This document shows, in pieces, positions 23,865-29,600 of a stretch of 64,000 nucleotides of DNA. Source of the stretch: Schmidtea polychroa (Eukaryota); contig CM097885.1 in assembly GCA_044892525.1 (NCBI GenBank), forward strand, positions 192,944,001-193,008,000. Direction: 5' to 3'. Positions within the stretch are counted from its first letter, which is position 1; the number at the start of each line of letters is the position of its first letter. Below the pieces are notes generated by a model, which was not told the origin of the DNA, made no database searches, and saw nothing but the letters and a program-made list of their open reading frames with translations. A program made the translations under genes and the position numbers.

Positions 23865-26684
23865 ATGACTGAAGATTGGATCAGTAAGTTTAATTATAAA
23901 CTTGATTTTATAATGAACTTTTTAAATGTAAAATTTTATAATCCTAATGCCAATAGGGGGAAGGATAAGGATAATCATAATTTAAATAATTATTTAGGTG
24001 AAAATTTTCCTTTATTTAGAAATGTAAATAGTAATGTCGATAGGTTCTATTTAAATGAAAATGAATTGAAAATTAATGAAGATCATGGGGCTAGTGATTT
24101 TTATTATGATAGAATTAAGGATACCACTAATTTTAATAAAAATTACAAATTAAATAAAAATTCATCTTCGAAATACCATCAAGATGTTCAAACTAATAAT
24201 AAGAATAATTTCCCATGCTCTAAGGGGAATTTGAACTCTAATTTGATGGGAAATATTGCATATAGTGCAAATATGAAAAGGAATTATTTGGGTTTAAATC
24301 ATAATTCAAATAATGTTTCATGTCATACAAATACAAATAAAAACTTATCCCTTAAATCGTCTGATAAATTTCCAGAAAAGAGTTTAATAAGCCAAAATTC
24401 CTCAAGATTTAATCCTAATGACGCTCATGTTCCTGAATTTCATAATAATGGATTAATTAACAAAAATAAGAAGTTGAATAAAAATAATTTATTTTCAAAA
24501 ACTAAAAATTTCAAAATTAATAATAGTTCTTCTGATGAGCCTGGATCCATTTCTGATCTGCGGAATTCTGGCCTAAAAGTAATACTTAATAATAATACTC
24601 GAAAAGTTAAATTTAACTTACAAGATTTTGAAAGCTCTGATTTACTAAATGCTAAATTGGATAATTTAAACATATCCAATTTAGAAAATGAAAATTTTAA
24701 ATATAAAAATTTTAAAATTTCCAAAAATACTAATTCAGAAAACCTTGATAGCAAAATTAAATTTAAAAAAGAAAATTTATCAAATTCTAAATTTAATTTT
24801 CAAAATAAAAAACAAATTTCAAATATAAATTATAAAAATTTGAAAACTTTCGAAAATCGGCAAAAATCTTCGGGAAATGACTCTGAAGCTGGTAGTAATA
24901 ATAAATTGAATATATTTCGAGTCTTAAAACCTAAAGAAAAGACCATTTTCTTTAAAACTTTCCCTGCGATAATTAAGGCCCTCAAATTAAAGGAGACCCC
25001 GCAGAAATTCAAAAAGCTAAATGCTGATTTGAGAAGCATAACGGCAATTGCCAATCCATTAAATATAGAGGGATTCGTTGGCTATTTTTATAGGAACGGC
25101 AATGTGTGCGTAAACATAAATTTGGGGTTGACAAACAAGAAGCCCTCAAAATCTCAGACTGACCCGGGGGTTATTTTTAAGACCTCTATTATTGACTCGG
25201 GTATTGTAACGGCATCCAATAATAGAGGCGAATTTTTCAAAGCGCCTGCAACAATTAAGAAATTCTTGTTTGTTCTTTCGACTCATCTTTCTGAGACCTC
25301 GTCCATAGGGAACACCAAAGTTCGAGGGGAACAAATAAATATTGCGCTTAACTTACTTAAAAAGCAAGGGACTCTACCAGACTACTTAGTAAGGTCGCAA
25401 ATAAAATATCAAGACGGTGACTTTGTCATGCTAGACCTTCTAGGCGATGACGCTCCCAGTAGTACGAGTTCGGCGGTTAGAACGTTGGAGCTTTCTCGGT
25501 CGCAAGTGCGCGATCTTTATAAATCCTTCCCAGAAATTTCTGAATTGCTCTTCACTGAAAACATCACAGAGAGTCCTGAGAAATTAATAGAGCTAATTGA
25601 AAGGTTAAAATCAGAAAAAGGGTTTCCCGAGCAGATCTCATTTGTGGGGGGTAAACTTATAAAAACTATTAAAATAAATAACAAAGAGACATCGAATTCT
25701 GAAAGCCAATCAGATATTATGTTTAATCTTGGCTTGTTAAACTTCATCGAAATGTCCGAAAAAGATGAAGTTTTAAAATCATTATTGCGCCAGCCAAAAT
25801 CTTCAACTAAGCTGATTAATGTCATTTTCCACCTTAATTACCTACAATTGAAGGGTGAACTTAGACATATTAAAAATGGAACATATGGCGATTATGTTTA
25901 CAACTACATCCGTAATTGTCTGTTGTTATACTCTGTCACAGACATAGATAATTGTAGCTCACTCTGCCTTGAGAATTTCGAGAGTTGGGCACCCAGCATG
26001 ACCGATACATTACCTTCCCAGTCTTATCATTTCTCTAGTTGCAAAGAGAGAATTCTGAAGCTTCGACAATGGAAGCTGTCAAACGAAATTGACACCCTAC
26101 ACAACATCATTTCCCCTGAAACCATAAGAGATGTCAATAGATTTCTTGACAAAGTTGATGAAGCTTACCCACAAAAGGCTGTCCAACTAGGTCTTCTTGG
26201 AAAATTAGGTAAAATGATTAATGAGATTGCACATGAGTCAGATATGAATGAGATGAGTCGTGCAAAAAGATTCCTCTTCTTTGTCATTAGAGACAAAAAG
26301 AAATTTCTATTCAACAATAACTTTTCTTATCGCATCCCACAACTTTGTAGAAAGATCTGCACACCTGGTATGGCTAATCACATAACAGATATTCTTGAAA
26401 GCCTTAACGCTACAATTGACAAAAAAGACATTGAACAGAATAAGAACCAACCTGACTGTCATGCACCAGTGGAAGCACTTGTAGTGGAACCTTGTTATTC
26501 TGTGAATGATGTTGATCTGTTAGACACAATCGAAGATGACAATAGTAGTCAAAAGCAATGCCTTGACACTGACATTGATAAAACACCATCAACGTCTGAG
26601 GTGATCAACAGCGACCAACTAGAACTCCGAAAAACAAACATATCCAGTAGGAAGACTAGACAAACTGCACACAAAAGTAAATGA
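23865..26684 (+). CDS. Element 4 ORF1 (939 aa; Asn/Lys-rich N-terminus, conserved core of unknown fold)
   Basis: Open ATG-TGA frame conserved across copies. Confidence 0.9.
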   Translation: MTEDWISKFNYKLDFIMNFLNVKFYNPNANRGKDKDNHNLNNYLGENFPLFRNVNSNVDRFYLNENELKINEDHGASDFYYDRIKDTTNFNKNYKLNKNSSSKYHQDVQTNNKNNFPCSKGNLNSNLMGNIAYSANMKRNYLGLNHNSNNVSCHTNTNKNLSLKSSDKFPEKSLISQNSSRFNPNDAHVPEFHNNGLINKNKKLNKNNLFSKTKNFKINNSSSDEPGSISDLRNSGLKVILNNNTRKVKFNLQDFESSDLLNAKLDNLNISNLENENFKYKNFKISKNTNSENLDSKIKFKKENLSNSKFNFQNKKQISNINYKNLKTFENRQKSSGNDSEAGSNNKLNIFRVLKPKEKTIFFKTFPAIIKALKLKETPQKFKKLNADLRSITAIANPLNIEGFVGYFYRNGNVCVNINLGLTNKKPSKSQTDPGVIFKTSIIDSGIVTASNNRGEFFKAPATIKKFLFVLSTHLSETSSIGNTKVRGEQINIALNLLKKQGTLPDYLVRSQIKYQDGDFVMLDLLGDDAPSSTSSAVRTLELSRSQVRDLYKSFPEISELLFTENITESPEKLIELIERLKSEKGFPEQISFVGGKLIKTIKINNKETSNSESQSDIMFNLGLLNFIEMSEKDEVLKSLLRQPKSSTKLINVIFHLNYLQLKGELRHIKNGTYGDYVYNYIRNCLLLYSVTDIDNCSSLCLENFESWAPSMTDTLPSQSYHFSSCKERILKLRQWKLSNEIDTLHNIISPETIRDVNRFLDKVDEAYPQKAVQLGLLGKLGKMINEIAHESDMNEMSRAKRFLFFVIRDKKKFLFNNNFSYRIPQLCRKICTPGMANHITDILESLNATIDKKDIEQNKNQPDCHAPVEALVVEPCYSVNDVDLLDTIEDDNSSQKQCLDTDIDKTPSTSEVINSDQLELRKTNISSRKTRQTAHKSK

Positions 26685-29600: not shown

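Follow-up and report, generated by a model that had tools for sequence, protein, structure and literature searches.

A conserved in-frame UGA followed by a predicted stem points to probable programmed readthrough in a 5S-inserted non-LTR retrotransposon of Schmidtea polychroa

How does a retrotransposon make its reverse transcriptase (RT) when the frame encoding it opens directly behind a stop codon and has no conserved AUG of its own? This question is raised by a stretch of 64,000 nucleotides (nt) from the planarian Schmidtea polychroa (GenBank assembly GCA_044892525.1, contig CM097885.1, positions 192,944,001 to 193,008,000 of the forward strand; hereafter the window, numbered from its first letter), which self-alignment and maps of open reading frames (ORFs) resolve into eight copies, arranged head to tail, of a non-LTR (long terminal repeat) element 8.3-8.7 kb long, in subfamilies A and B. 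In the fourth copy, ORF1 (23865..26684, + strand), which has 939 amino acids (aa) from its first ATG, a core conserved across families and a basic tail, ends at an in-frame UGA, and the ORF2 frame (26685..31301, +; 1538 codons after the stop) continues from there with a Ulp1-like protease and the RT. A preliminary description, made from this DNA alone, took the arrangement as likely programmed readthrough. The frame, stop and stem kept within the close clade support that view, and we consider it highly probable, from sequence comparison, that readthrough of the UGA yields a Gag-Pol-like polyprotein of 2478 aa (ORF1-protease-RT-endonuclease).

The junction is uniform within the window. The motif TGA-N6-GTGCCTGCA starts at 1223, 9496, 18061, 26682, 35006, 43357, 52030 and 60579, thus in 8/8 copies as had been described, and never on the minus strand; the frames on either side of the TGA are identical and open in all eight, and both ORFs are fully open in three (26682, 43357 and 52030), the other five being broken or running off the window. 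Behind the predicted readthrough codon of the fourth copy (26682..26684, +) lie a 6-nt spacer (26685..26690, +; ARR NRY, with Arg or Lys as first codon in 10/10 families) and a predicted stem, of which the 5' arm (26691..26707, +; GUGC CUGCAUC..UCUC) encodes VPAS and the 3' arm (26730..26749, +; GAGA..GAUGCAG, a 3-nt bulge, GCAC) encodes DADST. The same UGA-spacer-stem cassette, 68 nt long, occupies 1223..1290, 9496..9563, 35006..35073 and 52030..52097 in subfamily A (copies 1, 2, 5 and 7) and 18061..18128, 43357..43424 and 60579..60646 in subfamily B (copies 3, 6 and 8), all on the + strand. The 13-bp core reported for subfamily B (18074-18086 with 18109-18121) is indeed perfect in copy 3, and the core at copy 26682 carries a 2x2 internal loop. 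Folding z-scores of the stem ranged from -2.2 to -4.5, the junction 60-mer came first among 2437 in-frame windows of a B copy and seventh among 2459 of an A copy, and pair probabilities in a 300-nt context were ~1.0 for the main helix and 0.5-0.6 for the 4-bp basal helix. Rfam returned no family at the junction in the window, and hence no known ribozyme or selenocysteine insertion sequence (SECIS) match.

Two other features of this region were noted. The loop pentamer UCUGC (26712-26716) is nearly invariant across families, its synonymous site included, and could compete for the 3' arm. A second hairpin (-25 kcal/mol) lies ~120 nt after the stop, at 26805-26864 and 43486-43545; we left it out of the proposed signal because strong folding of the one at 26805 is confined to A, B and one further family (L072), with weaker or no hairpins in most others.

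The same junction recurs throughout the 781-Mb host genome, where the TGA-bearing pattern has 619 exact matches and its reversed control none. When the TGA is not required, the stem pattern finds 624 sites, so that 619/624 follow a TGA; two of the five remaining sites were read, and these have a TGG, in an old diverged copy with a broken stem (L101), and a TAA. Families were gathered by protein searches of the host genome, with at most 150 matches scored per search, and 50 genomic stretches were compared, giving 29 junction rows (some of these copies are broken further up in the ORF1 frame). The counts omit L073, L075 and L086, which are truncated or shifted at the junction, L024, which has a stop inside the protease, and L093, which has a TAG there. 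The VPAS type accounts for 19 of the 29 rows, each with the TGA, the 6-nt spacer and the stem; three rows were damaged at the junction, and the remaining seven belong to relatives described below. The stop at the junction is TGA in 10/10 families, while the same elements' own ORF2 ends are TAA nine times and TGA once.

Comparison of nine selected families, whose ORF2s are 53-81% identical and whose four-fold degenerate sites are 32-76% identical, showed that this conservation extends to silent positions. Third bases are invariant at four-fold codons 3, 4, 6 and 19 in the arms and 10 in the loop, against 1/146 four-fold columns past codon 22, and identity reaches 97% in the arms, compared with 68% in the loop, 65% in the spacer, 59% in the bulge and 42% in the ORF1 tail. 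In the protease next to the junction, four-fold sites approach saturation for most family pairs, so recent homogenisation does not fully account for the pattern.

Relatives outside this group keep an in-frame UGA and place it elsewhere. In a sister family (L083/L084), whose RT is 57-59% identical to that of the window family, an ORF1 homologue (23-31% identity, shared motifs) runs unbroken through protease 1, and the single in-frame stop, UGA-CUC, follows the protease, so that the product of first-junction readthrough in the window element is directly encoded there. After this stop, a long-range stem with an alphavirus-like span (L084:4550-4770; z -3.4) is predicted in this one family, and it pairs the stop itself. 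In more distant families (L081/L082/L107, L089/L104 and L090/L091; RT 32-37% identical), UGA-CUA or UGA-CUC falls in a protease column that is otherwise occupied by Trp (five rows), Tyr (L092) or Leu (L088), and that aligns to the W of WLND in Ulp1/SENP; in the L081 family the TGA is present within 24/24 matches. Initiation after the UGA in these families would therefore cost the protease domain a conserved residue. A UGA-CGG ~135 codons further upstream occurs in L088-type copies, which are degenerate and lie within one amplified repeat. Folds 3' of the UGA-C stops were mixed (z -3.4 in L084, -4.3 in L089, -0.4 in L081 and -1.1 in L088). The preliminary description had expected related families to keep both frame and stem, and the close clade does; distant families keep an in-frame UGA at other positions, with UGA-C contexts instead of the window-type stem, a relocation that fits readthrough and not GUG initiation. 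UGA-CUA and UGA-CGG are type II viral readthrough contexts (PMC13517186).

What lies behind the stop is a protease with the residues typical of Ulp1. Protease 1 (26808..27284, +; Pfam PF02902, E 3e-7) is Ulp1/C48-like, with Trp42, His103, Asp120 and Cys169 counted from the stop; its profile matches Ulp1 at E 4e-16, and its H, W, D, Q and C are invariant in 10/10 rows. The position given earlier for the first ATG of ORF2, 27138, is correct, although the accompanying numbers (codon 150, His101, Asp118) count from the GTG and become 152, 103 and 120 from the stop. That an AUG start would leave a dead protease holds for this family, where the first in-frame AUG lies past His103 and Asp120 and before Cys169, and does not extend to the others, among which no AUG is conserved and the first falls anywhere from codon 37 to codon 317. 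A Gly-Gly-Gly follows protease 1 (27327..27335, +), and GG or GGG is found at this place in 11/11 VPAS rows of the host genome and 11/14 outside proteins, the remainder having GxG; in L084 the UGA stands three codons before an equivalent GRG. Ulp1 enzymes cleave after Gly-Gly, and on that ground we infer this motif to be a candidate self-cleavage site, a weaker claim than that of readthrough.

Similar GG motifs precede zinc fingers in L081, L088 and L089. Two further degenerate protease-like repeats without catalytic residues were recognized by eye at ~27400-28450, and L074/L100 carry a duplicated intact protease in a frame of 1888 codons.

Homologues in other datasets were compared at the level of protein. 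Seven such proteins are 35-51% identical to ORF2, and a profile search added more. Ten, as called, begin at the first codon of the stem (MPAS, MPAT, MPAP, MPTS or MHAS), and nine carry the peptide of the 3' arm (DADST, GAEST, GVDCT or DVDST) with unrelated loops between. Bases fixed by the residues imply a change from U-A to C-G in P0009 and P0033 and from G-C to A-U in P0031, so that two-sided covariation of the stem, absent in the DNA, is suggested by these outside proteins only. For the ten rows that fit, between 0 and 22 control starts, out of as many as 240, matched the stem score. P0038 is open through VPASV..DADST, and an N-terminal region, protease, RT and endonuclease share one ORF both in P0010 (2039 aa) and in P0050 (2421 aa), which is 30% identical across RT and endonuclease. 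A metagenome scan for homologues gave one 1.4-kb RT fragment.

Read directly from the sequences were the frame, the identity of the stop, the conservation of both arms, the relocation of the stop among relatives and the single-frame relatives; the following course of expression would connect them. The RNA would start within the 5S spacer, with a leader that may undergo splicing, and translation would start at the ORF1 AUG at 23865. Most ribosomes would terminate at the UGA and release the ORF1 protein, while the predicted stem, once formed, would prompt a minority to insert an amino acid at the UGA and continue, giving a product of 939+1+1538 = 2478 aa, close to the ~2480 aa proposed earlier, with the predicted junction peptide SK-X-RCVPASISISAPISDEK. 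Trp, Cys and Arg are the usual insertions at UGA, and Trp (or Cys/Arg) would probably be inserted here. The Ulp1-like domain may then cut the polyprotein at the conserved Gly-Gly, as the retroviral protease processes Gag-Pol, and the purpose of the whole would be a high ratio of ORF1 protein to RT from one RNA.

Several observations weigh against this reading. Two-sided changes were found in 0/16 predicted pairs across 14 aligned genomic junctions, where the pair changes amount to two from C-G to U-G and one broken pair. With arms nearly invariant, constraint on the primary sequence or on the encoded peptide is a possible alternative, and the GUG is conserved just as strictly as the stem. Among the outside proteins, P0007, P0027 and P0045 have an A-G mismatch at one stem pair, P0006 does not fit the stem (control starts matched its score in 153/240), and the N-terminal part of P0050 has no detectable homology to ORF1. 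Families also recombine near the junction, with L064 and L065 sharing the protease region (43/48 four-fold sites) and L061 a mosaic, so the nine families count for less than nine independent tests, and tandem duplication may have produced many of the 619 copies. The L092 copy, which is broken, has no in-frame UGA junction, and the L088-type copies are degenerate. The context in the window family, UGA-AGG or UGA-AAA, lacks the type II UGA-CUA or UGA-CGG and is weaker, as the preliminary description had cautioned, even though Drosophila kelch provides a precedent for UGA-A with a stem (PMC3159437). Finally, the spacer of Moloney murine leukemia virus (MoMLV) is 8 nt long, compared with 6 nt here, and shortening it by one codon impaired readthrough (PMC13517186), and the UGA-plus-structure junction of the Candida albicans element Tca2 gave no readthrough in a yeast reporter (PMC2194720).

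An explanation that we regard as unlikely is that ribosomes terminate at the UGA and then reinitiate, or initiate internally, at the GUG two codons downstream, where the stem would hold the ribosome, and that ORF1 and ORF2 are made as separate proteins. The GUG is invariant in 14/14 aligned junctions, outside proteins have been called from this codon (though the gene caller used allows GTG starts), and there is precedent in SART1, whose stop-restart coupling needs a downstream structure, and in the unconventional reinitiation at L1 ORF2 (PMC5972666). The invariance is, however, explained by the pairing of the GUG within the basal helix GUGC/GCAC, and its context, with U at -3 and C at +4, speaks against a start. 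Reinitiation does not require a shared frame, yet the frame is kept; an in-frame AUG overlapping or near the ORF1 stop is absent here and across families; and L084, L081, L089 and L090 have UGA-CU and no GUG there, three of the four placing the stop on the conserved Trp of the protease, while ORF1 and protease form one frame in L084.

Explanations at the level of RNA fare worse. ORF2 might be translated from a different RNA, in which the stop has been removed by splicing, or which is transcribed from a promoter inside the element at the junction, as found in Tca2; translation would then begin at an AUG further downstream. The leader of the element RNA is apparently spliced (copy 2 lacks a GT..AG segment) and the 3' arm holds an invariant UGCAG, but no conserved splice donor lies upstream, the sequence before UGCAG is purine-rich, the complementary 5' arm would be left unexplained by splicing, and the first AUG is not conserved and in the window family cuts protease 1. 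An RT with cis preference copies the RNA it was made from, so, were the RT made from spliced RNA, new copies would carry spliced junctions, whereas 619/624 stem sites keep the TGA (a pattern that misses copies without the 5' arm); we give this route very little weight. Less credible still is that the UGA itself is altered or redefined, by adenosine-to-inosine editing to UGG, by selenocysteine or by a host code in which UGA is sense. In favor of this are the Trp column occupied by the stop in distant families, the TGG of one old copy (L101) and the predicted fold of L084 that pairs the stop. Edited RNA would nevertheless return to the genome as TGG, and those 619 sites hold TGA; the stop of the window family lies outside the stem; and the UGA falls in a disordered linker or at a Trp, away from any catalytic Cys. 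A code with UGA as sense was rejected, because each element uses TGG 14-20 times and TGA internally once, while some ORF2s end in TGA. Four contig sets, three of them RNA by guess only, gave no GT..AG joint and, among the differences listed, no change at 26682-26684; since contigs do not reveal levels of splicing or editing, they carry no weight here.

If readthrough is thus preferred, how far does it set this element apart from known systems? R5, as reportedly described by Burke in 2003, has two ORFs. Like R5 and the LIN families of Schmidtea mediterranea (LIN25_SM, LIN9_SM), the window element has an RT and a restriction-like endonuclease and inserts into multicopy RNA genes; its 5S target is not among the LIN targets listed in the available text of PMC4640811 (28S, tRNA-Arg and tRNA-Glu). 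NeSL-1 and Utopia-1_TSP also have a Ulp1-like cysteine protease N-terminal to the RT, and are described as one protein, in contrast to the long ORF1 before the protease across a stop, and the three protease-like repeats, found here (PMC4640811). The closest parallel in plan is gag-UAG-pro-pol of MoMLV, with a structural-type ORF, a leaky stop, a 3' structure overlapping the start of the protease, and protease followed by RT (PMC13517186); the window element differs in its UGA, its predicted hairpin in place of a pseudoknot, its 6-nt spacer, its C48 cysteine protease and its non-LTR nature, and in an ORF1 that gave no clear match to a capsid fold. Type II readthrough in alphaviruses, coltiviruses and PSIV shares the UGA, the 3' stem and synonymous-site conservation in both arms (PMC3159437, PMC13517186), and relatives of the window element carry UGA-CUA, UGA-CUC and UGA-CGG; the window stem is compact, has a 22-nt loop, starts at +10 and is a prediction. 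Drosophila kelch likewise combines UGA-A with a predicted bulged stem of 14 bp (PMC3159437). Tca2 is a retrotransposon with an in-frame ORF-UGA-pol arrangement and a predicted 3' structure, as here, but is an LTR element (PMC2194720), and its case cautions that the two together may be insufficient in a heterologous reporter. SART1 and LINE-1 have bicistronic non-LTR RNAs, as here, and reinitiate at an AUG in an overlapping stop-start or after a spacer, whereas the window lineage has no conserved AUG and a conserved frame (PMC5972666).

Viruses, gammaretroviruses and fly genes are already known to use readthrough with a 3' stem, and the lineage of the element is known as well. A literature search at the level of listings met neither readthrough in a non-LTR element nor a LIN family targeted to 5S, and the main text of PMC4640811 contains neither 'stop codon' nor '5S r'; the R5, SART1 and NeSL-1 papers and Repbase may mention an in-frame stop. 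The few non-LTR elements with a worked-out translation of ORF2 use reinitiation or StopGo (PMC5972666). Readthrough, if true, would add a retroviral solution to this class, predict an ORF1-RT fusion and give the long-unexplained Ulp1-like domain a role. We lean slightly towards a broader reading, in which a flatworm lineage of site-specific LINEs (long interspersed nuclear elements) independently reached the retroviral Gag-Pro-Pol plan, with a polyprotein throttled by readthrough, a UGA that has changed place three times or more (ahead of the protease and with a stem, at the protease Trp, and after the protease) and a captured SUMO-type protease cutting at di-glycine. The lineage is a natural series of interchangeable signals in one genome (UGA-A with a compact stem, UGA-CUA, UGA-CUC and UGA-CGG), which permits a direct test of how far a 3' stem rescues a weak context, and the cassette, at 68 nt, would fit into a reporter. 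Gene callers start ORF2 proteins at GTG or split them, which matters for the expression of such site-specific elements.

The remaining features of the element are as follows. ORF1 has no Pfam match and gave no homologue in the homologue search, a result that says nothing on its identity; comparison with PDB, viral models and a wide search found no clear fold match (best Z 6.9, helical), and a check for a capsid fold or zinc knuckle gave no clear match either, on a model with a predicted template-modeling score (pTM) of 0.43. In ORF2 the RT domain (29052..29828, +; Pfam PF00078, E 4e-26) is followed by a CCHC zinc knuckle and restriction-like endonuclease motifs (30735..30990, +, end approximate), read from the sequence as CRLC..RHN..C and RVDL..D.K, with zf-RVT at E 0.0045, below the cut-off; no apurinic/apyrimidinic endonuclease (APE) family matched in Pfam.

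Insertion is specific to the 5S array. Rfam found nine 5S rRNA sequences between the copies in the window, two of them complete genes of the ~305-bp native repeat and seven cut at nucleotide 21/22, where they are broken by the 3' end of an element with the terminal sequence AATAAACTTTTAC; 31919/31920 and six equivalent sites are precise 3' junctions. Around the fourth copy, a complete 5S gene of the host array lies on the 5' side (23575..23693, +; RF00001, 97.7 bits), and the 3' untranslated region (UTR) (31302..31919, +), with its terminal AATAAACTTTTAC, abuts nucleotide 22 of a 5'-truncated 5S gene that forms the 3' target flank (31920..32017, +). The 5' junction of subfamily B lies 4 nt before the 5S start, and the 5' end of subfamily A is spacer-like. 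A GT..AG segment at the passage from 5S spacer to element leader (23748..23788, +; 41 nt in copy 4) is a likely spliced intron, since the head of copy 2 (6593-6610), compared with 23738-23799, lacks exactly this segment, which the other eight of nine 5S-spacer heads retain; copy 2 thus looks like the product of a spliced RNA begun in the host spacer. A second GT..AG segment stands in the leader of subfamily B (15080-15119), directly 5' of the ORF1 frame.

We assign the element to the planarian R5/LIN lineage of the NeSL clade, a placement made by 3' ends, targets and domains, with an RT tree of host-genome loci and unnamed homologues. It rests on S6 Fig of PMC4640811, against which sequences were compared by eye: the 3' end of the window element (..AAATTTGTTATTTTAATAAACTTTTAC) resembles LIN25_SM ends, L066 (RT 82% identical) joins at the tRNA position of one LIN25_SM row, and L092 sits at the antisense 28S site of LIN9_SM. 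The families retrieved (L062-L072, L081, L085, L095, L084 and L092) each occupy an RNA-gene array of their own: tRNA arrays for Asp, Asn, Thr, Cys, Gln, Leu, His, Ser and Lys and a Gln/Gly unit, as well as an intron-bearing tRNA (Pro by ARAGORN, Tyr-like by eye), a split U6 below the Rfam cut-off and antisense 28S. Mosaic elements, with ORF1, protease and RT regions swapped among families, were seen in L061, L064/L065, L087 and alignment blocks of the window, and a truncated UGA-CUC element in L090 adjoins a long telomeric-type hexamer repeat.

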